DNA of 64,000 nt from Actinomycetota bacterium (GCA_021325435.1 JAJPHE010000055.1:49906-113905), one strand, 5' to 3'. Counted from the stretch's first letter, positions 7,976-45,700 are shown. The notes: generated by a model not told the origin, from the letters alone. Program-made: numbers and translations.

Positions 7976-9016
7976 ATGAACCCGGACTCGTTCGATCCCG
8001 CCGAGGCCCTCGACCGGATCGCCTACCTCCTCGAGCGCCAGCGCCAGCCCAGCCACCGGGTCCGCGCCTTTCGCCGTGCCGCCGGGGTGGTGCGGGCCCT
8101 GCCTCCTAGGGACCTCGAGGCGCTGGCGTCGGCCGGGCGGCTTCGCTCTCTGGCCGGCATCGGCGAGTCGACCGAGCGGGTGATTACGGAGGCGCTGGCC
8201 GGGCAGACGCCCGCCTACCTGAGCCGGCTGGAGGACGAACCGGCTGAGGAGCTCGAGGGCGCCGCCGTCTCCCTTCGCCAAGCGGTACGAGGGGACTGCC
8301 ACGGCCACTCCGACTGGTCCGACGGGGGCAGCCCGATCGAGGAGATGGCCGCGGCTGCCGCCGCCCTGGGACACGAGTACTGGGCCCTCACCGACCACTC
8401 TCCCCGGCTGACGGTGGCCCACGGCCTCGATCCGGACCGGCTGCGGCGCCAGCTCGAGGTGGTGGGCGAGCTCAACCAGCGATTGGCCCGAGAGGGCGGG
8501 TTCCGGATCCTCACCGGCATCGAGGTCGACATCCTCGAGGACGGCCGGCTGGACCAGGAGGAGGAGCTCCTCGCCCGCCTCGACGTCGTCGTCGCCAGCG
8601 TTCACTCCAAGCTGCGCATGGAGGGCCCGGCCATGACGGCGCGGATGGTCCGGGCCGTGCAGAGTCCACACGTCGACATCCTCGGCCACTGCACCGGCAG
8701 GATCGTCGTCGGCCGGAGCCGTCCCCAGTCGGATTTCGACCCGGAGGCGGTCTTCGCCGCCTGCGCCGCTTCCGGGACGGCGGTGGAGATCAACTCGCGC
8801 CCCGAACGCCTCGACCCCCCACTGCCACTCCTGGAGAAGGCCCTTGAGGCCGGGTGCTTGATCGCCATCGACACCGACGCCCACGCCCCGGGTCAGCTCG
8901 AATGGCTGGGAAACGGCTGTCGGATCGCGGCCGACGCCGGCGTCGAGGCCGAGCGGGTCATCAACACCTGGGAGCGCGAGCGGCTGTTGGACTGGACTGC
9001 CTCCCGGACAGGCTGA
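7976..9016 (+). CDS. HhH + PHP-domain protein (PolX-related phosphoesterase lacking the polymerase core)
   Basis: The N-terminal RVRAFRRAAGVV...LAGIGESTERVI helix-hairpin-helix region is followed directly by CHGHSDWSDG...ALTDHSP...ASVHS...ILGHCTG...AIDTDAH PHP metal-binding motifs. Confidence 0.7.
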   Translation: MNPDSFDPAEALDRIAYLLERQRQPSHRVRAFRRAAGVVRALPPRDLEALASAGRLRSLAGIGESTERVITEALAGQTPAYLSRLEDEPAEELEGAAVSLRQAVRGDCHGHSDWSDGGSPIEEMAAAAAALGHEYWALTDHSPRLTVAHGLDPDRLRRQLEVVGELNQRLAREGGFRILTGIEVDILEDGRLDQEEELLARLDVVVASVHSKLRMEGPAMTARMVRAVQSPHVDILGHCTGRIVVGRSRPQSDFDPEAVFAACAASGTAVEINSRPERLDPPLPLLEKALEAGCLIAIDTDAHAPGQLEWLGNGCRIAADAGVEAERVINTWERERLLDWTASRTG

Positions 9017-9020
9017 CCGG

Positions 9021-10001
9021 TCATGGCTCGCGCCCGACGTCGGTGGCGATCCGGTCCGAGCGCAGCCCCTTGAACCGTGGGGCCCGCAGGGTGCCGGACC
9101 GGGTCCACTCGGCGAAGGCCACCTCGGCGACCAAGCTCGGTTCCACGAAGCGGGCCGAGCGCCTGACGGGGGGCGGCAGCGGGGGGGTGGCCGCGAAGGG
9201 GCTGTCGGGGCGGCCCAGGCCGGCCAGGGCCTGCCCGATCCGTCCCAGGTCGGCCTCGGAGAGGCCGCTGCCGACCCGGCCGGCGTATCGGAGCTGGGCG
9301 TCCTCGTAGTAGCCGACCAGTAGCGACCCCAGACGACCGGAGCGGCTCCCCTCCCCCGGCAGCCAGCCCCCGATCACCAGCTCCTGACGGCGGACGTTCT
9401 TCACCTTCAGCCAGCAGCGCGACCGGCGGCCCGCCTCGTAGGCGCTGTCCAGCCGCTTGGCGACCAGGCCTTCGAGCCCCTGGCGGCGGGTCGCCTCAAG
9501 CAGGGCGGCCCCGTCACCCACGTGGTAGGCGGGCACCTGCACCCGGCCTTGCGGTCGCACCGTGTCCTGGAGGAGCCGGCGCCGATCGGCATACGGCAGC
9601 TCGACGAGGGATCGATCGTCGAGTCTGAGCAGGTCGAAGGCCACGTAGTGCACGCCGATCTCCGCCATCCGGCGTTGGATCCGGACAGCCCCGGCGATGT
9701 TGATCCGCTGCTGCAACCGCTCGAAGCTCGGCCGGCCGCCCTCGTCGTAGGCGACGATCTCCCCGTCCAGCACGACCCGGTGGCCGCCGGTGGCGTCGGC
9801 CAGCTCACCCAGCTCCGGGTACTGAGGGGTGATGTCGAGCAGGTTACGGCTCTGGAGCCGGACCCCGGAGTCGTCGACGAACGCCAGGGAGCGCACGCCG
9901 TCCCACTTGAGCTCAAAGGCCCAGCGCGACTCGTCGGTGGGCAGCCGGTCCGTCGCCACCGCCCTCATGGGCTCGATCACCTCGGGCACCGGTGGGGTCA
10001 C
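9021..10001 (-). CDS. ATP-dependent DNA ligase (LigD ligase-domain / LigC type)
   Basis: Adenylation motif I ELKWDGVR, DGEIV, and LEGLVAKRLDSAYEAGRRSRCWLKVK (motifs IV-V). Confidence 0.85.
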   Translation of the reverse strand: MTPPVPEVIEPMRAVATDRLPTDESRWAFELKWDGVRSLAFVDDSGVRLQSRNLLDITPQYPELGELADATGGHRVVLDGEIVAYDEGGRPSFERLQQRINIAGAVRIQRRMAEIGVHYVAFDLLRLDDRSLVELPYADRRRLLQDTVRPQGRVQVPAYHVGDGAALLEATRRQGLEGLVAKRLDSAYEAGRRSRCWLKVKNVRRQELVIGGWLPGEGSRSGRLGSLLVGYYEDAQLRYAGRVGSGLSEADLGRIGQALAGLGRPDSPFAATPPLPPPVRRSARFVEPSLVAEVAFAEWTRSGTLRAPRFKGLRSDRIATDVGREP

Positions 10002-10054
10002 CGGTGGTTTGATACCGGCGAGTCGACCGGGCGCAGGGGGGGAACGGAAAGCTG

Positions 10055-10960
10055 GTGACTGTCAGCCAGGACGTGGAGATCGAAGGCCGCACCCTCCGGG
10101 TGACGAATCTCGACAAGGTCCTCTACCCGAACGGATTCACCAAGGCTCAGGTCATCGACTACTACATCCGGGTTGCTCCCGCCTTGCTCCGTCACCTCGC
10201 CGGGCGCCCCATCACCCTGAAGCGTTATCCCAACGGCACCGAAGGTCAGTTCTTCTACGAGAAGAACTGCCCTTCTCACCGCCCGGAGTGGGTGAACACC
10301 GTCAAGGTGCCCCGCGCCCGGGGGGACGAGCGTTTCATCACTTACTGCACCGTCGACGACCTTCCCACCCTCGTGTGGCTGGCCAACCTGGCCGCCATCG
10401 AGCTCCATCCACTGCTGGCCAGGGCCGTCGACGTCGACTCGCCCACCCACGTGGTATTCGACCTCGACCCTGGTCCGCCGGCCGGGCTGCTCGAGTGCGC
10501 TCGCGTCGGATGCCTCGTGCGCCAAGAGCTGGATGGAATGGGGCTGCAGTGCTTTCCCAAGACGTCGGGCTCGAAGGGGCTGCAGCTCTACGTCCCCCTC
10601 AACCGGCCCCACACCTACGAGCAGACCAAGCCCTTCGCCCATCGCCTGGCCGCCGCCCTGGCCCGGCGGCATCCGGAGCTGGTCGTCGAGAAGATGGACA
10701 AGTCGCTGCGCAAGGGGAAGGTGCTCATCGACTGGAGTCAGAACCATCCCACCAAGACGACCGTGGGCCCCTACTCGCTGCGCGCCCGCGAGCGCCCGAC
10801 CGTCTCCACCCCTGTCAGATGGGGCGAGGTGGAGGACCTTCTCGCGGGAGGCGACGCCTCCCAACTCGCTTTTGACGCCACCCAGGTCCTCGATCGGCTG
10901 AACGAGGAGGGCGACCTGTTCGAGCCGGTCGCCACCCTGCACCAGGAGCTGCCGGTCTGA
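10055..10960 (+). CDS. LigD primase-polymerase domain protein (NHEJ polymerase)
   Basis: LRVTNLDKVLYPNGFTKAQVIDYY, VVFDLDP and FPKTSGSKGLQLYVPL are the archaeo-eukaryotic primase motifs of LigD-Pol. Confidence 0.85.
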   Translation: MTVSQDVEIEGRTLRVTNLDKVLYPNGFTKAQVIDYYIRVAPALLRHLAGRPITLKRYPNGTEGQFFYEKNCPSHRPEWVNTVKVPRARGDERFITYCTVDDLPTLVWLANLAAIELHPLLARAVDVDSPTHVVFDLDPGPPAGLLECARVGCLVRQELDGMGLQCFPKTSGSKGLQLYVPLNRPHTYEQTKPFAHRLAAALARRHPELVVEKMDKSLRKGKVLIDWSQNHPTKTTVGPYSLRARERPTVSTPVRWGEVEDLLAGGDASQLAFDATQVLDRLNEEGDLFEPVATLHQELPV

Positions 10961-16288: not shown

Positions 16289-16344
16289 GGCTCTCCTTCC
16301 GCCGTCACCTTACCGGCCGGCCCCCGGCGCGCCACACTTGGTGG

Positions 16345-17199
16345 GTGCCCGAGCTGCCTGAGGTCGAGGCCCTCTCCCTGTTCCTTGGCGAACGCACGGA
16401 GGGAGCGATCGTCGAGCGGGTCGACGTGGTCGCGGTCAGCGCCCTCAAGACCTTCAGCCCCTCTCCGGACGAGCTGTGTGGCCGGACCATGCAGTCGGTG
16501 GGCCGGCGGGGGAAGTTCCTCGTGATGGCGACCGACGGCCCCTCGCTGGTCGTTCATCTAGCCCGGGTCGGGTGGATCAGGTGGCGCGACGTTCCCGCCG
16601 GACGGCCGAAGCCGGGCCGGGGCCCGTTGGCCCTGCGGGTGACCCTCGATCGGGGGGAGTTCGACGTGACCGAGGCGGGCACCCAGAAGAAGGTGGCGGT
16701 CTACGTCGTGGAACGGCCCGAGGATGTCCCTGGCGTGGCGTCCCTCGGCGTCGATCCGCTCTCCTCGGAGTTCACGGCCGATCGCCTCGCTGCGCTGCTG
16801 GGGTCGACCCGCCAGCAGCTCAAGGGGGCCCTGACGGACCAGTCCCTGGTCGCCGGGGTCGGCAACGCCTACTCCGATGAGGCGTTGCACGCCGCCCGCC
16901 TCTCACCGTTCAAGGCGGCGTCGTCACTCACCCCCGAGGAAGTGGAGAGTCTGCACACGGCCATCTTGTCGGTGCTGGCCGATGCCGTCGGTCGCTCGGC
17001 GGGGTTGCCGGCTGCCGGCCTGAAGAGCGAGAAGAGGTCGGGAATGAGGGTCCATGGCCGGACCGGAGAGGGGTGCCCGGTGTGCGGGGAAAAGATCCGC
17101 CAGGTGGCCTTCGCCGATCGCTCGTTGCAGTACTGCCCGGGCTGTCAGACCGGTGGCAAGGTGCTGGCCGACCGGCGCCTCTCGCGGCTTCTCAAGTGA
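16345..17199 (+). CDS. Fpg/Nei-family DNA glycosylase/AP lyase
   Basis: Starts (V)PELPEVE, giving a catalytic N-terminal Pro. H2TH region and C-terminal zinc finger CPVCG...YCPGCQ. Confidence 0.85.
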   Translation: MPELPEVEALSLFLGERTEGAIVERVDVVAVSALKTFSPSPDELCGRTMQSVGRRGKFLVMATDGPSLVVHLARVGWIRWRDVPAGRPKPGRGPLALRVTLDRGEFDVTEAGTQKKVAVYVVERPEDVPGVASLGVDPLSSEFTADRLAALLGSTRQQLKGALTDQSLVAGVGNAYSDEALHAARLSPFKAASSLTPEEVESLHTAILSVLADAVGRSAGLPAAGLKSEKRSGMRVHGRTGEGCPVCGEKIRQVAFADRSLQYCPGCQTGGKVLADRRLSRLLK

Positions 17200-17214: not shown

Positions 17215-17700
17215 TCACCTCCTCGGTGGTCGGGTGCGCCACCATCGCCCCCCCAGGATCGCCAGGACCACGAACGCACCCGCCCCGCTGAGGGCCGGGA
17301 AGGCCGGGCTGATGTGGGCCCCCGGCTCCGGGCCGATGGCCAGCGTCGTCGGCGGAGGCGGCGGCGGGGGGAGGGGCAGAGTCGTGACCGACGACGTGGT
17401 CGTCGGCGCCGTCGTGGTGGTGGTCGTCCGCAAGGTGCGCGCTGTGGTCGGGGGGTGCGCCACCCCGGTAGTGGTCGTGGTCCGCACGGTCGTCGTCGAC
17501 GACCGGGGAACGCTCGTGGTGGTGGTGGTGAGGGGAGTGGTGGTCGGTGTCGTCGTGGGCGCCGTGGTCGGCGGGGGGGAGGTCGTCGTGGTCGTTCCGG
17601 GTGCCACCCTGGCCTCGGTGGGCCCGGCGAGGGACAGTCCGGCCAGCAAGGTGACGCCGAGCGCCGCGGGTGGCAGGAGTCGAAGGACGGGCACGTTCAC
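17215..17700 (-). CDS. secreted Thr/Pro-rich low-complexity protein with C-terminal TM and Arg-rich tail
   Basis: Signal-like VNVPVLRLLPPAALGVTLLAGLSLAGPTEA, long TTTT/PT runs, and C-terminal AGAFVVLAILGGRWWRTRPPRR. The start is ambiguous (GTG 17700 vs 17817). Confidence 0.5.
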   Translation of the reverse strand: MNVPVLRLLPPAALGVTLLAGLSLAGPTEARVAPGTTTTTSPPPTTAPTTTPTTTPLTTTTTSVPRSSTTTVRTTTTTGVAHPPTTARTLRTTTTTTAPTTTSSVTTLPLPPPPPPPTTLAIGPEPGAHISPAFPALSGAGAFVVLAILGGRWWRTRPPRR

Positions 17701-17771
17701 AGTTTGGACGACCGGTGGGTCGAAGGCGCGCCGGCAGCGCTGTGACAGTCGCCGGGCGCTCTGACGATGAT

Positions 17772-19328
17772 GTGGCGGTGACCGCCGCTGACGTGCCTGC
17801 GCCGGCGCGGGCCGCACGACTGGCCGGTTACGGTCCCAGCCTGGCGGTCATCGGGCCGTTCATCCTCCTTGGGCTGCGGTGCGCGCTGTGGCGGAGCCAC
17901 GTGTTCCTACGTGGCGACCTGGCCCTGATCGACCTGTCGGTGCGCAACGCCGGCCGCCTCCACCAGGTGCTCGGCCCCTACGACCGCTTTGGTTGGCACC
18001 ACCCCGGCCCCGTCTACTTCTACCTGGTGGCCAGCGTCGCCCGGGTGGTGGGCGGCGGGCTCCAGGCCCAGGCGGTGGGAGCAGCTCTCCTCAACGGACT
18101 GTCGGTCGGCGGCGTGGTGTTCGTCGTGGGCCGTCTGGCCGGGCGCCGGGCAGCGGTCGGCGCCGGCGCCCTGCTGGCGGCGGCAGTGGCGGTCCTGGGC
18201 CCGGTGGTCATGATCAACCCCTGGAACCCCTACGTCGTGGTCCTGCCGGTGCTCCTGGTGGGCGTCCTTTCCGTCGGCGCTGCCTGTGGGGTGACCACGT
18301 GCTGGGCGGCGGCGGCCCTGGTGGGCACCTTCGTCGTCCAGACGGATGTGGGAACGCTGCCGGTGGTGGCGGCCGCCCTGGTCCTGTCGGGCGCGTCCTG
18401 GCTCATCTGGAAGCCCCAGCGGACGGCGCTCACCAAGGCGCCCGCCGCGGTGGTGCTGCTGGTCCTGGCGGTCGCCCTCTGGGTGCCCCCGCTCGTTCAG
18501 CAGTTGACTGGATCGCCGGGCAACCTCGGACAGATCGTCTCTTTCATGACGGCCGGACATCCCCGAGCCGGCCTGCCCGCAGCGGTACGGGCCCTTGGCA
18601 GTGCCCAGCTGAATGTGGTCGGACTCTCGTCTGGAGGCGCCGTTGGCCTGTTGCTGCCGGTGGCGCTGGGATCGACCGGTGTGGTGTGGGGTACCAGGCG
18701 CCGCAGCCTCTTTGCCGCCGCCGCCGGCGCTCTGTGCCTCTTGAGCGTGGTGGTCTCGATCGCGGCGGCGGCCGCCGTTGTGGGTCCCGTGTACCGCTAC
18801 CTGATCGAATGGTCGGTGGCCCTTCCACTCCTTGGCGCGGTAGGCGTCATCACCGCGGCCGGCACGGACCAGCCCGCCGGGGAATCCTCCAGTCGCGCCG
18901 GGCGCCCGATGACGGCCGTGCCGTGGGTCGCCCTGGCCGTCGGCGTGTTGGCGTTGGTGGGTCGCATGTTGTCCCTGCCGTCGTTCGGCACCTACTCGGC
19001 GCCGGAAGTGGCCGCGGCATGGGACCTGGTGCGCCCGGCGCTGGCCGTCCGACCCCACGAGCGCGTCGAGGTCGACGCCGTCGATCCGGCTGGGTGGGCG
19101 GTGGCTGCCGGACTGTGTGACGAGATCGACCGGACCGCGACCGGATTCGTAGTGCCCTCCCAGTGGGGATTCCAGTACGGCAGCGATCGGGTGGGCTCGG
19201 CCGCCACCGTCGTGTACCTCCGGGCGCCGGCCCCCCCGCCGGGCGAGCCCGGGCAGTTGCTGGGCCGGGCCGGGCCGGTATCGGTGTGGCTGGCCCACCA
19301 AGCCGGCGGCCCCACTGGAGTGAGCTGA
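17772..19328 (+). CDS. polytopic membrane protein, possible GT-C-type glycosyltransferase
   Basis: More than 10 predicted TM segments with a large C-terminal soluble domain. The first loop contains GDLALIDLS. Function call is weak and the start is ambiguous (GTG 17772/17778). Confidence 0.4.
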   Translation: MAVTAADVPAPARAARLAGYGPSLAVIGPFILLGLRCALWRSHVFLRGDLALIDLSVRNAGRLHQVLGPYDRFGWHHPGPVYFYLVASVARVVGGGLQAQAVGAALLNGLSVGGVVFVVGRLAGRRAAVGAGALLAAAVAVLGPVVMINPWNPYVVVLPVLLVGVLSVGAACGVTTCWAAAALVGTFVVQTDVGTLPVVAAALVLSGASWLIWKPQRTALTKAPAAVVLLVLAVALWVPPLVQQLTGSPGNLGQIVSFMTAGHPRAGLPAAVRALGSAQLNVVGLSSGGAVGLLLPVALGSTGVVWGTRRRSLFAAAAGALCLLSVVVSIAAAAAVVGPVYRYLIEWSVALPLLGAVGVITAAGTDQPAGESSSRAGRPMTAVPWVALAVGVLALVGRMLSLPSFGTYSAPEVAAAWDLVRPALAVRPHERVEVDAVDPAGWAVAAGLCDEIDRTATGFVVPSQWGFQYGSDRVGSAATVVYLRAPAPPPGEPGQLLGRAGPVSVWLAHQAGGPTGVS

Positions 19329-19331
19329 CGG

Positions 19332-19570
19332 CGGAAGAAGTTCCGGCAGGAAGCCCACCGCAAGGGCTCCGGGCGCAACCCCGGCCACGTCCTTCCGGAA
19401 GGACTTCCGGAAGGAAGCAGCCTGCCCGCGGGGAAGGCGGGAAGGCCAACCGGAAGGAAACCGGCCGGCTTCCGTGGAGTCCTGGCATCCTTCCGGAAGG
19501 AAACTGCTGGCTTCCGGCCGGAAGGAAGTCGGTGGGAACGTCCTTCCTTCCGGAAATCCTCCGGAAGCAG
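19332..19570. repeat. array of TTCCGGAA-core palindromes and CGGAAGG half-sites
   Basis: Perfect palindromes: GTCCTTCCGGAAGGAC 19389-19404, CTTCCGGAAG 19404-19413, TCCTTCCGGAAGGA 19488-19501, CTTCCGGCCGGAAG 19511-19524, TTCCGGAA 19548-19555. Additional half-sites lie at 19332, 19341, 19431, 19439, 19449 and 19558. The region is non-coding. Confidence 0.9.
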
Positions 19571-19587
19571 ACGACGTCCACGATGGG

Positions 19588-19593
19588 TAGTAT
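19588..19593 (+). promoter_or_regulatory. -10 hexamer TAGTAT, 6 nt upstream of ATG 19600 (leaderless candidate)
   Basis: Near-consensus TANNNT. No SD. Confidence 0.5.
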
Positions 19594-19599
19594 GGGGCG

Positions 19600-20088
19600 A
19601 TGCCCAGCGCCAAGGACACTTACTCCGCCGCCCAGGCGGCCGACATCATCGGGGTCAGCGAACGGCGGGTCCGCCAGTTGGTTGCCGAGAAGAAGCTTCC
19701 GGGGGTCCGGTCGGCCGACGGAACGGTGAGGATTCCCCAGCAGGCAGTGAACGAGGAACGGAAGAAGCGCCGCGGCGGCTCGACCGCCACCGCCTCCACC
19801 GCCACCAAGCGCAAGGCGACGGGTGCGACCAAGGCCCGATCCGACGTTGATGTCGACGCCCTGGCCTCGGCGGTCGCCAGCGCCGTGGGCCAGCGGCTGG
19901 AGGGTCAACTGGAGGTGACTCGGCGGGCTGAGAGTCTTGTGCGGGCCGAACTCGACGAGGAGCGGGCCCGACGCATGGAGGCCGAAGCGAAGCTGGCCGA
20001 AGCCCAGCGGCAGGTCGAGGAGCTCAGGGAAGCGGCGTCGAAGCGCGGGATCTTCAAGCGCCGGCGGCCGGTGGCGAGCGAAGCCTGA
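19600..20088 (+). CDS. HTH (excisionase/MerR-superfamily, HTH_17-like) DNA-binding protein with coiled-coil C-terminus
   Basis: YSAAQAADIIGVSERRVRQLVAEKKLPGVRSADGTVRIP is the HTH. A basic linker follows, then the heptad-like ERARRMEAEAKLAEAQRQVEELREAA. Confidence 0.65.
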   Translation: MPSAKDTYSAAQAADIIGVSERRVRQLVAEKKLPGVRSADGTVRIPQQAVNEERKKRRGGSTATASTATKRKATGATKARSDVDVDALASAVASAVGQRLEGQLEVTRRAESLVRAELDEERARRMEAEAKLAEAQRQVEELREAASKRGIFKRRRPVASEA

Positions 20089-20513
20089 TGAGAAGGGCAG
20101 CGGCGGCGGTGTCGGTGCTGGCGCTGGCCGCCTGCGGAGGGGCGTCGGGCGGCGCCCAGGGAACGTCGACCACCAGCCCGGCCCAGGCGAAGTCGGCGAT
20201 CGCCTCGACGTGGACCACCTTCTTCTCCGCCTCGACCCCGCTGAGCACCGAGATCTCCCTGCTTCAGAACGGGAACCGTCACGAGGCTCAGATCCAGGCC
20301 CTGCACAAGCAGATGCCCGCCGACCTCTCGGCCCGAGTCGTCTCGGTGGCGGTGTCCAACGGGCAGGCGACGGTGACTTACGACCTCATCAGCAACGGGC
20401 AACCGTTGTTGAGCTCCCACTCGACCGGCAAGGCGGTCCTGGTGGCCGGTAGGTGGCTGGTCAGCGAAGGGACGTTCTGCTCGCTGGTCACCCTCGCCGG
20501 GTCGAGCTGCTGA
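20088..20513 (+). CDS. lipoprotein, unknown function (small alpha+beta domain)
   Basis: Lipobox VLALAAC. Its start overlaps the upstream stop (TGATG). Confidence 0.55.
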   Translation: MRRAAAAVSVLALAACGGASGGAQGTSTTSPAQAKSAIASTWTTFFSASTPLSTEISLLQNGNRHEAQIQALHKQMPADLSARVVSVAVSNGQATVTYDLISNGQPLLSSHSTGKAVLVAGRWLVSEGTFCSLVTLAGSSC

Positions 20514-26359: not shown

Positions 26360-28246
26360 ATGACCGACGCGACGGTTCACCCGCTGGATCCACTCGGGCC
26401 GGACGAGATCCGCGACGCCGTTCGCATCACGAGGGAGCTCAAGGATCTGGGGGAGCGCGCCCGGTTCGCCTTGGTCGCCCTGGAGGAGCCTTCCAAACAA
26501 GAGGTGCTGGAGCAGCTCGGTGGCACGGAGCGGCGGGCCCGGGTCCAGGTGGTCGACCCCGACGCCCGACGGGCGTGGGACGGCGTGGTGTCGCTGAGCG
26601 CCAAGGACGTCCTGGCGTGGGACGAGATCGAGGCGGGCCAACCCCCCTTCACCTTCGGCGAGTTCCGCTTGGCCGTAGCGGCGGTTCGCGCCGATCCGCG
26701 GTGGCAGGACGCGGTCCGGGCCCGGGGCGTCCAAGACATCGACTCCGTTCAGATCGACCCGTGGTCGGTGGGCGCCTTCGGGGCGGAGCCCGAGACCCGC
26801 CGGCTGGCCCGGTGCGTCTCCTACGTGCGGACAACCCCCACCGACAACGGGTACGCCCATCCCATCGAAGGACTGGTGGCGACGGTGGACCTTCAGACCG
26901 GTGAGGTCGTCGAGGTCGTCGACGCCGGCGTGGTCCCGGTGCCCCAGGAGACCGGCGCCTACGACGCCGAGGTGGTGGGCGCCCGGTCGGGCCCGCGGAC
27001 CCTCGACATCGTCCAACCCGAGGGCCCAACGTTTGAGGTGGAGGGTCAGGAGATCCGTTGGATGGGCTGGCACATCCGCTTCTCGATGACCCAGACCGAA
27101 GGTCTCGTGCTCCACACGGTGGGTTTCGAGGACCACGGCCGCCTGCGTCCGATCCTCTACCGGGCGAGTCTCTCCGAGATGGTCGTTCCCTATGGGGACA
27201 CCGCGCCCGGCCACTGGTGGAAGAACGCGTTCGACGCGGGGGAGTACGGCATAGGCAAGATGGCCAACTCCCTCGAACTCGGCTGCGACTGTTTGGGGGA
27301 GATCACCTACTTCGACGCGTGGTTCGCCGACGACGACGGCGAACCGGTGCGGATCGGTAATGCGGTGTGTCTGCACGAGGAGGATTTCGGCATCCTCTGG
27401 AAGCACACCGACGGCTGGTCGGGTAGATCGGAGGTGCGCCGCAGCCGACGGCTGGTGCTGTCGTCGATCTCCACCGTTGGCAATTACGACTACGGCTTCT
27501 ACTGGTACTTCTACCTCGACGGGACCATTCAGCTCGAGGTCAAGTCGACCGGCATCGTTCAGACCGCCGCCCTGCCGCCTGGTGAGACGCCGGCTCACGG
27601 CCAGCGGGTCGCCCCCGACCTCTACGCCCCTCACCACCAGCATTTCTTCTGCTTCCGTCTCGATGTTGACGTCGATGGCGTCACCAACTCGGTGCAGGAG
27701 GTCGACGTCGTCGCCTCCGAGTCCGGTCCGGACAACCCCTACGGCAACGCCTTCGAGCTGCGCCGGACGCCGCTGCGCTCCGAGCGCTCGGCCCGCCGGA
27801 GGGCCGACCCCTCGGCGTCGAGGTCTTGGTGGATCCTCAACGAAGCGGAGCACAACCGGCTGGGGGAACCGGTCGGCTACCGGCTGGTGCCCGGACCGAC
27901 CACCTGCCTGTTGGCGGCGCCGAATTCGAGCATCGGAAGACGGGCGGCCTTCGCCACCGAGACTCTGTGGGTCACCGTCAATTCACCCGAGCAGCGCCAT
28001 GCGGCTGGCTCGCACCCGAACCAACATCCTGGGGGGGAGGGTCTGCCCGCCTGGACAGCGGCCGACCGCTCGCTCGAGTCGACCGATGTCGTGCTCTGGT
28101 ACACCGTCGGTATCACCCATGTCGCCCGCCCGGAGGACTGGCCGGTGATGCCGGTCGAATGCTCCGGCTTCAGCCTCAAGCCCCAGGGGTTCTTCGAGCG
28201 CAATCCGGCGATCGACCTGCCGGCCGCTGATCATTGTCACCGCTAA
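26360..28246 (+). CDS. copper-containing primary amine oxidase (TPQ enzyme)
   Basis: TPQ consensus TVGNYDY, His ligands in APHHQHFF and ITHVARPEDWPVMP, and the DPWSVG region. The start MTDATVHPLDPLGPDEI resembles known bacterial amine oxidases. Confidence 0.9.
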   Translation: MTDATVHPLDPLGPDEIRDAVRITRELKDLGERARFALVALEEPSKQEVLEQLGGTERRARVQVVDPDARRAWDGVVSLSAKDVLAWDEIEAGQPPFTFGEFRLAVAAVRADPRWQDAVRARGVQDIDSVQIDPWSVGAFGAEPETRRLARCVSYVRTTPTDNGYAHPIEGLVATVDLQTGEVVEVVDAGVVPVPQETGAYDAEVVGARSGPRTLDIVQPEGPTFEVEGQEIRWMGWHIRFSMTQTEGLVLHTVGFEDHGRLRPILYRASLSEMVVPYGDTAPGHWWKNAFDAGEYGIGKMANSLELGCDCLGEITYFDAWFADDDGEPVRIGNAVCLHEEDFGILWKHTDGWSGRSEVRRSRRLVLSSISTVGNYDYGFYWYFYLDGTIQLEVKSTGIVQTAALPPGETPAHGQRVAPDLYAPHHQHFFCFRLDVDVDGVTNSVQEVDVVASESGPDNPYGNAFELRRTPLRSERSARRRADPSASRSWWILNEAEHNRLGEPVGYRLVPGPTTCLLAAPNSSIGRRAAFATETLWVTVNSPEQRHAAGSHPNQHPGGEGLPAWTAADRSLESTDVVLWYTVGITHVARPEDWPVMPVECSGFSLKPQGFFERNPAIDLPAADHCHR

Positions 28247-44347: not shown

Positions 44348-45700
44348 CTAGCTGTTCAGGTTGGACGGCGGTTGGGGCTGGGTGTAGTTGCTGACCGACG
44401 GGGCGCTGCTGCTGTCGTCGGTGGTGTAGACCGAACCCTGAGGCACCAACGTCGAGCCGTCCTTGTTGACGGCGATCTGCTCTCCGGTGAATCCGGCGTT
44501 GGAGCCGGACGAGAAGGCGAACGGAACGATGCCCGGACCCCCCAAGTCGGCGCTGTGCAACGTCTTTATGACGCTGTCGCGGGTCGGGTTGACTCCGGCC
44601 TGGTCCATCAGCCGGACGAAGGTGTAACCCACCGACTCTCCGTAGAGGACGTTGCCGTCCCACGGAAGGGTCGGGATGTACTGGTCGTGGATCTTCTTGA
44701 ACAGGGCGATCCACGGGTTGGAGGTGTCGTTCAGGGCCGGCAGGTAGGTGCCGGTCACCATGCCCGTAAGGAGGCTGCCGCCGGCCTTGCCCGACGAGAA
44801 CTTGGTCAGCAGACCGGACAGGGTGGGCGGGTCAGACCCGACGCTAGAGACGACCCAGGTCGGGTGGTAGCCGATCTTGGCTGCCTGCAGCAGGACCAGG
44901 GCGGTGAAGGCAGGGATGGTGTAGAGGGCGACGACCTGGGCGCCCTTGGCCTGGAGGGCGGCCACCTGGGGACCGACGTTGATGTTGTTCACGTCGTAGG
45001 GCTGCTTGGTGACCACGTCGGAAGCGGGTATCTCGTAGTCGAGACCCTTGATGCCGTCCTGGCCGAAGTCGTCGTTCTGGTATACGTAGCCGACCTTCTT
45101 GCCGGACAGGCTCTGCTTGATGTACTGCCCGAGGATCTTGCCCTCACGGATGTAGTCGGTCTGCCAACCGGAGGTGTAGGGATACTTGCTGGGCTGGTCC
45201 CAGCAGATGCAGCCGGAGGCGACGAACAGGTCGGGGACCTTCTCCGAGTTCAGGAAGGCCTCCACGGCCGAGTGGGTGGGCGTTCCCAAGCCGTTGAAGA
45301 TGGCGAAGACGTTGTCCTGCAGCACCAGCTTGCGGACCACGGTCGTGGTCTGGCTGGGGTTGTAGGCGTCGTCCTCGTAGGTGTACTTGATCTGGCGGCC
45401 GTGCACACCGCCCTTGGAGTTCACGTACTGGAACAGGGCGTTGGCCGCCGGGGCGATCTCGCTGTAGCCCGGGGCGGCTGGCCCGGTCAGGGGCTGATGG
45501 CTGCCGATCGTGATCGAGTTGGCGGTGATGCCCGGTGCCGAGGCCGTGGGCGTGCCGCCGCCTCCGCTGCCGCCGCTGGTCGTGCTGGATGAGCCGGTGC
45601 TCGAGCCGCTCGGGCTGCTGGAGCCGCAGGCGGCCGCCAGCATTCCGAACGCCGCGACCACCGCCACGGAGCGCAAGACCTTGGAGGTCGTGGATCCCAT
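44348..45700 (-). CDS. Liv-type ABC substrate-binding lipoprotein
   Basis: Start at MGSTTSK (ATG 45700) with GAGAAGGGA upstream. Lipobox LAAAC, Gly/Ser linker, and type-I PBP pattern (ITIGSHQPLTGPAA...YVNSKGGVHGRQIKY). Confidence 0.8.
   Translation of the reverse strand: MGSTTSKVLRSVAVVAAFGMLAAACGSSSPSGSSTGSSSTTSGGSGGGGTPTASAPGITANSITIGSHQPLTGPAAPGYSEIAPAANALFQYVNSKGGVHGRQIKYTYEDDAYNPSQTTTVVRKLVLQDNVFAIFNGLGTPTHSAVEAFLNSEKVPDLFVASGCICWDQPSKYPYTSGWQTDYIREGKILGQYIKQSLSGKKVGYVYQNDDFGQDGIKGLDYEIPASDVVTKQPYDVNNINVGPQVAALQAKGAQVVALYTIPAFTALVLLQAAKIGYHPTWVVSSVGSDPPTLSGLLTKFSSGKAGGSLLTGMVTGTYLPALNDTSNPWIALFKKIHDQYIPTLPWDGNVLYGESVGYTFVRLMDQAGVNPTRDSVIKTLHSADLGGPGIVPFAFSSGSNAGFTGEQIAVNKDGSTLVPQGSVYTTDDSSSAPSVSNYTQPQPPSNLNS

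Follow-up and report, generated by a model that had tools for sequence, protein, structure and literature searches.

The intergenic gap at positions 19,329 to 19,599 of a 64,000-nucleotide stretch of Actinomycetota DNA (GCA_021325435.1 JAJPHE010000055.1:49906-113905; the whole stretch is referred to below as the window) is a lattice of about 11 site centres, built on the half-site CGGAAG, laid out in a 12-bp register and belonging to the gene which follows it, 19600-20088, whose product is a helix-turn-helix (HTH) protein. The gap runs from the TGA codon (19326-19328) of an open reading frame (ORF) for a PMT_2-like membrane protein to the ATG at 19600, and the site centres span about -268 to -33 relative to this ATG. 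In the reading that we favour, at a probability of about 0.6, the cluster would be the cognate cooperative binding lattice of the gene's own product, which would in this way autoregulate its promoter.

The earlier note on this DNA, which was made from the sequence alone, had described five perfect palindromes sharing one core, six copies of TTCCGG and seven of CCGGAA within the gap, and no full palindrome in the coding parts. A sequence check found all five palindromes at the positions given, a recount returned exactly the same two figures, and no copy of TTCCGGAA lies outside the gap in the 64-kb window. In fact, this octamer occurs four times in the window, always in the gap (shuffled sequences hold 0.38 copies on average, and none out of 100 reaches four), and 8 of the 11 window copies of CCGGAAGG fall there too. 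Moreover, 13 of the window's 52 CGGAAG/CTTCCG hexamers are found at 19329-19599, a density of 13 per 250 bp; no other cluster in the window exceeds 3. The double site at 19389-19413 consists of two copies of a 12-bp tandem, CTTCCGGAAGGA. The description of the gap as the most A/T-containing stretch, on the other hand, was wrong, since it has 66.1% GC for a window mean of about 71% and lower-GC stretches exist. The lowest-GC 270-bp segments are located near 44.97 kb (60.0% GC) and 27.24 kb (61.1% GC), the stretches 44900-45300 and 27240-27570 having the lowest GC content of the window (60-62%), below that of the gap.

The array is not peculiar to this contig. A comparative set of 20 loci from Acidimicrobiia metagenomes, with orthologues of 47-100% protein identity, was drawn from a metagenome scan (at least 18 loci) and from exact-protein look-ups (11 more), the gene module being defined as the region from 350 bp upstream to 150 bp downstream of the gene. 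In 16 of these 20 loci, including the window (about 53-100% identity), 7-14 site centres are present within 320 bp upstream of the gene. The commonest 10-mers are CCTTCCGGAA and CTTCCGGAAG, the latter being found in all 15 upstream arrays analysed for k-mers, and the symmetrised consensus across loci is (C)CTTCCGGAAG(G). No alignment of the spacers between sites is possible among loci. The genes upstream vary (PMT_2, a hypothetical gene following Fpg, an aminoglycoside-phosphotransferase-like (APH) gene, a Spherulin4-like gene and a hydrolase-associated one), and so do those downstream. Since neighbours and spacers differ while the array stays, the array goes with the HTH gene, not with the one upstream; conservation in relatives, which had been proposed as a check, was thus found in the 20 loci, and it tracks the HTH gene rather than its flanking genes. 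The gene modules hold 67 copies of TTCCGGAA, while the 197,317 bp outside them hold none, and hexamer density is 14.6 per kb inside the modules versus 0.52 per kb outside, where clusters never exceed 3 per 250 bp.

These figures bear directly on the idea that the array could be a functionless dispersed palindromic repeat, of the repetitive extragenic palindromic (REP) or miniature inverted-repeat transposable element type, or else a slippage microsatellite. One 12-bp unit is indeed tandemly duplicated, and the pattern TTCCGGAANNNNTTCCGGAA arises by chance in many unrelated genomes: when genome contigs were scanned with it, nearly all of the matches listed were chance occurrences in unrelated phyla, and most of the loci among them held just the four half-sites of the pattern itself. 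Nevertheless, no scattering of a REP-like kind, which the earlier note had named as a possible outcome, was observed, with no copies elsewhere in the 64 kb, in a 7.85-kb leftward extension of the source contig or in the 197 kb of orthologous flanks. The cluster is, furthermore, conserved at one gene whose proteins are only 47-73% identical, and the motif is maintained at synonymous sites, as described below, so that a repeat without function is hardly credible. Among the unrelated matches, Streptomyces sp. NPDC015131 (L030, 846-890) has a 12-bp tandem, GAAGAGCTTCCG, of about four units at the apparent start of an opposite-strand gene, a chance match. A contig labelled as an Odoribacteraceae metagenome-assembled genome (MAG; L055, 5855-6192, 62% GC) carries two families of tandem repeats of about 20 bp containing TTCCGGA, which fill the last 340 bp of the fetched stretch and are unrelated to the Acidimicrobiia lattice.

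The geometry of the array is regular. Across the orthologous loci, a distance of exactly 12 bp is the commonest one between successive palindromes (10 of 44 pairs), the distances between site centres peak at 11-12, 21-24, 35-36, 46-48 and 59 bp, and spectral power is maximal at a period of 12.0 bp, with z = 9.8 against a null of simple random placement. The two half-site orientations are about equally frequent (88 CGGAAG and 74 CTTCCG), a balance more in keeping with a double-stranded DNA target than with an RNA signal confined to one strand. As regards the promoter, the TAGTAT box that had been reported 6 nt upstream of the ATG was confirmed, and in 20 of 21 related loci the start codon is preceded, at 6-8 nt, by a TANNNT box, leaving no room for a Shine-Dalgarno sequence. 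Because this box is conserved, the reading of the HTH gene as leaderless, already made in the earlier note, is supported. A simple sigma-70 promoter scan found nothing, as expected for a high-GC actinobacterial promoter. The promoter-proximal site reaches into positions -45 to -20 at about 10 of 17 loci. One of these is the window, whose half-site TCCGGAAG occupies -40 to -33 and overlaps the expected -35 region; at the remaining loci this site stands as far away as about -105.

Taken from the RNA side, the array could be a hairpin-stack terminator or 3' untranslated region of the upstream membrane-protein gene, or a structured leader. The gap does fold better than its shuffles (-139 kcal/mol, z = -3.5), which is trivially expected for palindromes, but a terminator scan found no terminator-like site and no stem followed by a T-tract, and the best Rfam match scores 22 bits for a gathering score of 80 bits. 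In addition, the upstream genes change while the array stays with the HTH gene, both half-site orientations are equally used, and, with a conserved -10 box at 6-8 nt from the start codon, the array comes to lie upstream of the transcript. An RNA element is therefore very improbable, and the terminator stack or multi-hairpin RNA which had been offered as an alternative finds no support.

An outcome that had not been anticipated comes from the loci with no intergenic space to accommodate the cluster. In a clade with the gene order thrS-HIT-HTH (L144, L146 and L147, 54-55% identity), 11 bp separate the gene from a preceding HIT-family gene and an upstream array is lacking; 13-15 CGGAAG/CTTCCG hexamers occur within the 483 bp of the gene, 1-2 more follow just past the stop codon, and the rest of each locus has 1-2. 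Synonymous recoding with the codon usage of each locus predicts 1.6-2.5 hexamers, and none of 5000 recodings reaches the 13-15 observed, while genes with an upstream array hold 0-3 within the gene, as chance predicts. The copies sit both in the part encoding the variable linker, where the palindrome CTTCCGGCCGGAAG occurs (the 14-mer of the window gap has an identical copy inside the L144 gene), and in conserved peptide segments. Thus, the peptide ASAVASA is written GCTTCCGCGGTTGCTTCCGCC in the HIT clade, with rare T-ending alanine codons, and GCCTCGGCGGTCGCCAGCGCC in the window, and the tail FFRKE is written TTCTTCCGGAAGGAA in the HIT clade. When the three related genes were compared, third-codon positions were variable in 2 of 32 cases inside the motif and in 42 of 129 outside it (Fisher p = 0.0018). 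Where the cluster is coding, the motif is therefore selected at synonymous sites. In a further orthologue (L008, 47% identity), with a divergent neighbour and a gap of about 60 bp, the linker-coding region carries the motif, and a dense group of copies follows immediately downstream of the gene. This placement upstream of, inside or downstream of the gene means that selection keeps the cluster at the gene itself, in whatever place has room for it.

The gene 19600-20088 encodes a 162-residue protein composed of a Xis/MerR-like winged HTH domain, a disordered linker and a long helix. The earlier description of an HTH_17-like protein with a coiled-coil tail was borne out, given that the Pfam HTH_17 threshold was passed (PF12728, 31.9 bits, cutoff 27), as was that of TIGR01764 (29.2 bits, cutoff 28.8), and that the AlphaFold2 (AF2) model contains a 70-residue helix for which a coiled coil is predicted. 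In this model, of mean predicted local distance difference test score (pLDDT) 80, the winged HTH domain (residues 7-59) comprises a strand (7-9), helices at 10-17 and 21-29, a wing (43-46) and a further helix (47-59), followed by the linker (60-84) and the long helix (85-154). In the Foldseek search the RacA DNA-binding domain ranked first, followed by Pukovnik Xis, the MerR-type HiNmlR and BldC, and the RacA, Xis, BldC and MerR DNA-binding domains were all matched with probability 1.0. The Xis of mycobacteriophage Pukovnik (PDB 4j2n) was also the sole PDB sequence match below E = 0.01 (E = 0.0023). The DNA-binding domain thus belongs to the HTH_17/excisionase class. A Rv2175c-type winged HTH (PF21531) scored 23.8 bits, below its cutoff of 27.1, and PDB 2kfs ranked only 38th by fold. 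Other weak matches of the window protein were to the small terminase family PHROG 57 (E = 8e-7) and, for the HTH domain only, to PADLOC mad1 (E = 2e-7), the latter without defence context.

About 160 relatives were found, nearly all in Acidimicrobiales/Actinomycetota MAGs and in soil or freshwater metagenomes; an exhaustive search gave 10 representative clusters (50% identity) at E <= 1e-30 and 77 at E <= 1e-10. The orthologues in the comparative loci have 150-180 residues and the same succession of winged HTH, disordered linker and long helix. An alignment of 32 sequences has as its invariant parts the recognition helix G(V/I)SERRVRQ and a block of the C-terminal half; RGLFRRR is the consensus for the end of the tail, which reads RGIFKRRR in the window protein. 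The region of the long helix (residues 85-162, 19852-20085) has invariant G102, Q103, E105, T107, A110, E111, R115, E117, E121, R122, A123 and R125, and the phenylalanine of the RGLFRRR tail is invariant as well. The conservation of this block exceeds the needs of a plain coiled coil, and it may be a partner- or membrane-binding surface. More distant, low-GC homologues (L013, 1025-1090; L014, 2320-2380; cluster P0173) keep the GISERRVRQ helix and the coiled coil with no CGGAAG cluster; P0173 is a 97-member cluster, one member of which is labelled by NCBI as Candidatus Nanopelagicales. In these homologues an N-terminal SGTPSGT stretch is written in repeated TCCGG(T/A)AC-like words.

Considering motif, promoter and protein together, the following mechanism is proposed. 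The winged HTH domains would bind the CGGAAG half-sites, two per palindrome, and the coiled coil, together with contacts between neighbouring subunits, would lead to a cooperative multimer along the 12-bp lattice. Such a multimer would coat about 230 bp, between roughly -270 and the -35 region of the gene's own leaderless promoter. The outcome would be a steep autoregulation, most probably negative, and in the clade with sites inside the gene the bound protein would act as a transcription roadblock instead. The reading put forward in the earlier note, that of an operator with multiple sites or an iteron-like array bound by an oligomeric regulator, possibly the downstream HTH protein, is supported by a motif that is not scattered in the DNA sampled and by its conservation with the HTH gene. 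The data establish the motif with its enrichment and phasing, the linkage of cluster and gene, the selection at synonymous sites, the geometry of the promoter and the fold of the protein; which protein binds, in what oligomeric state and with which sign of regulation is inferred.

Several points weigh against this reading. A factor other than the HTH protein could recognise the motif. The only visible target of the protein is its own gene, no other target having been seen in the sampled DNA, so that a further function is needed. The half-site centres are 5 bp apart within a palindrome, which is unusual for a classical HTH dimer, and the spacing between array and -10 box ranges among loci from -26 to about -105, which is loose for a simple occlusion operator. 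In its pure promoter-operator form the reading is, moreover, too narrow, one clade having its cluster inside the coding sequence. Finally, distant homologues with the GISERRVRQ helix (L012-L014) lack CGGAAG clusters; these were found using the recognition-helix peptide as the search pattern, so that their helix identity is forced, and, the helix being invariant, covariation of helix and motif is not demonstrable.

The first and last of these points would also favour the view that the array is the operator of a different regulator, encoded elsewhere and controlling the HTH gene, with the HTH protein itself not being the binder. Nevertheless, the DNA sampled, about 205 kb from at least 20 genomes, shows the motif only at this gene. 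The motif persists even where the gene's own codons have to accommodate it, and a regulator acting in trans on other targets as well would not easily account for this. In addition, an invariant recognition helix parallels an invariant motif over 47-100% protein identity. We consider this view improbable.

The main rival proposal, possible although rather doubtful, is that gene and cluster constitute a chromosomal landmark or anchoring module like RacA-ram or ParB-parS, where the protein would nucleate on the cluster to form a large nucleoprotein complex, autoregulation being a by-product, and the coiled coil and RGLFRRR tail would tether or organise the locus through a cellular partner. The protein has the plan of RacA, i.e. 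a winged HTH domain, a disordered linker of 25-60 residues and a coiled coil, with the RacA domain as the top fold match, and the cluster stays with the gene upstream, inside or downstream, more like parS in or near parB than a promoter operator. Furthermore, 10-19 half-sites on a 12-bp lattice go beyond the needs of autoregulation, the roughly 12 invariant residues of the long helix and the invariant tail phenylalanine suggest a partner interface, and a regulator without a visible target except itself needs another job. However, no NTPase or partner gene is conserved alongside, the loci lie in no fixed chromosomal neighbourhood, markers of the dnaA, parB or dif type are present in none of them, each locus has a single cluster with no dispersed sites as for RacA in the 197 kb of flanks, and neither RacA nor ParB is homologous in sequence to the protein. 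Gene and site cluster might even be a self-contained, Acidimicrobiia-specific mini-kinetochore that couples the locus to the membrane, the divisome or a polar scaffold, an unlikely version of this proposal.

Comparison with known systems helps to place the module. RacA, the kinetochore-like protein of Bacillus subtilis sporulation, combines a MerR/Xis-like winged HTH domain with a linker that is divergent and disordered and with a coiled coil at the C-terminus (PMC4914108). Its ram site, TGACGCCGGCGTCA, forms clustered G+C-containing palindromes with a central CCGG, in about 25 regions over roughly 600 kb around the origin (PMC4914108). The likeness lies in the three-part protein plan, the DNA-binding domain as best fold match and the clusters of short CCGG-centred palindromes. 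Nevertheless, the family profile retrieved no RacA chain from the PDB at E <= 10, and only the DNA-binding domain is alike (Foldseek E about 1e-2); the organisms differ (Firmicutes versus Acidimicrobiia) and so does the motif, and ram is dispersed around the origin while here there is one dense cluster at the own gene and no TTCCGGAA in 197 kb of flanks. In RacA, the coiled coil serves polar anchoring by way of DivIVA. BldC and phage Xis form cooperative multimers or filaments on variable numbers of short sites (PMC5859096). They share the DNA-binding fold class with the present protein, for which multimerisation on repeats is proposed by analogy, but they are single domains of 50-70 residues on head-to-tail direct repeats, whereas here a 162-residue protein with linker and coiled coil is associated with palindromic sites in both orientations (88 versus 74). 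As for Xis, no integrase, att site or tRNA context is present here; with this and the extra coiled coil, a true excisionase or recombination directionality factor was rejected.

In small terminases of the gpNu1 type, a winged HTH and a coiled coil are used on repeated R sites at cos, several repeated sites as in this array, where protein binding is predicted. The likeness lies in the weak PHROG 57 match and in a fold rank of 28 for the lambda gpNu1 domain; in contrast to that system there are no large terminase or phage genes nearby, no relative in IMG/VR or among GenBank phages, and the neighbours of the HTH gene are housekeeping and syntenic. In ParR-parC, about ten short repeats in an 11-12-bp register lie upstream of a gene for a small DNA-binding protein and serve both as promoter operator and as assembly platform. 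The present module is similar in its phased array upstream of the own gene, with 7-14 centres per locus and a 12-bp register, but the protein is a winged HTH and not a ribbon-helix-helix protein, there is no ParM, ParA or TubZ neighbour, and the gene is chromosomal, without plasmid or phage relatives. Mobile-element and plasmid-partition readings were dropped, there being no relatives in the phage, plasmid and IMG/VR sets, and a small terminase appears less likely for the same reason. On present reading, the system would be a cooperative winged HTH protein with its site array, unusual in the relocation of the array into coding sequence.

The coordinates of the elements discussed are collected in Table 1.

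Table 1. Elements of the array, promoter and HTH gene in the window, and clusters embedded in orthologous genes.
Feature	Position	Strand	Remarks
Whole intergenic array	19329-19599	.	11 site centres: 5 perfect palindromes plus half-sites; consensus (C)CTTCCGGAAG(G)
Degenerate distal double site CGGAAGAAGTTCCGGCAGGAAGC	19332-19354	.	87% identical to 19396-19418
Double site: 16-bp palindrome GTCCTTCCGGAAGGAC (19389-19404) abutting CTTCCGGAAG (19404-19413)	19389-19413	.	Centres 12 bp apart
Two facing half-sites, CCGGAAGGAA and CTTCCG, either side of CCGGCCGG	19450-19474	.	
14-bp perfect palindrome TCCTTCCGGAAGGA	19488-19501	.	
14-bp perfect palindrome CTTCCGGCCGGAAG	19511-19524	.	Variant with 4-bp expanded centre
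Promoter-proximal sites: TTCCTTCCGGAA and half-site TCCGGAAG (19560-19567)	19544-19567	.	Palindrome core TTCCGGAA at 19548-19555
-10 box TAGTAT	19588-19593	+	6 nt before ATG 19600; leaderless-mRNA promoter
Winged HTH domain, residues 1-59	19600-19776	+	Recognition helix GVSERRVRQ; AF2 pLDDT about 90
Disordered, sequence-variable linker, residues 60-84	19777-19851	+	pLDDT 42; variable alignment columns
Single long helix, residues 85-154 (predicted coiled coil), conserved block, basic tail and stop	19852-20088	+	
Embedded clusters	L144 6148-6500; L146 3148-3500; L147 1553-1910; L008 3160-3540		Orthologues without intergenic space

In the window, the gap is preceded by a gene for a Fpg-type glycosylase (about 16300-17199), a Thr/Pro-rich minus-strand ORF and the PMT_2-like membrane-protein gene, and it is followed by the HTH gene, a lipoprotein gene overlapping the HTH stop codon and a convergent liv-type ATP-binding cassette transporter operon. 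The order WhiB, PolX/PHP, ligase, LigD, glyoxalase, Fpg and HTH is common to the window and one relative (L139), and therefore the locus appears to be ordinary chromosomal DNA, vertically inherited, as this shared order suggests. No integrase family was found among the neighbours in the window and 12 annotated related loci, no tRNA, phage or plasmid gene is present in the window, and no relative of the HTH family was found by tblastn in phages or plasmids, nor with the family alignment in IMG/VR viral contigs.

Some further features of the neighbourhood were recorded. The lipoprotein gene (20085-20513, a weak match to the WKL family) starts at an ATGA overlap with the HTH stop codon, which suggests that the two genes may be translationally coupled; their pairing is kept in none of the orthologous loci. 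On the minus strand, 17215-17817 holds a 200-residue Thr/Pro-rich ORF, with a GC content at third codon positions of 0.85 and no family match, which overlaps the 5' end of the longest PMT_2-like frame (17670-19328, plus strand); therefore, the true start of the PMT_2-like protein is probably further downstream. A set of genes resembling non-homologous end-joining functions lies at 7976-10960, comprising PolX/PHP (7976-9016), an ATP-dependent ligase (9021-10001, minus strand) and a LigD primase-polymerase (10055-10960), with a WhiB gene before it, and it is syntenic with L139.

In full-text searches, TTCCGGAA and CTTCCGGAAG turned up only as primers and eukaryotic sites and not as a bacterial operator, nothing relevant was found on an HTH_17 plus coiled-coil protein in actinobacteria, and no paper was found on either the motif or the family. 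These searches agree with the earlier note, to which no matching described motif family was known, and the pairing of motif and protein family seems to be undescribed. The finding thus concerns an apparently new protein family, widely conserved in Acidimicrobiia and paired with a precise DNA motif, for which a lattice geometry is predicted. All of the organisms carrying the module are uncultured, and with the module a protein-DNA system becomes open to direct testing in a class for which hardly any genetics exists. Moreover, the move of a site cluster into the coding sequence of its own gene, by means of rare codons, illustrates from nature how a protein code and a DNA code can overlap. If the role of the module were structural rather than regulatory, it would represent a new RacA-like chromosome-organising system in Actinobacteria.

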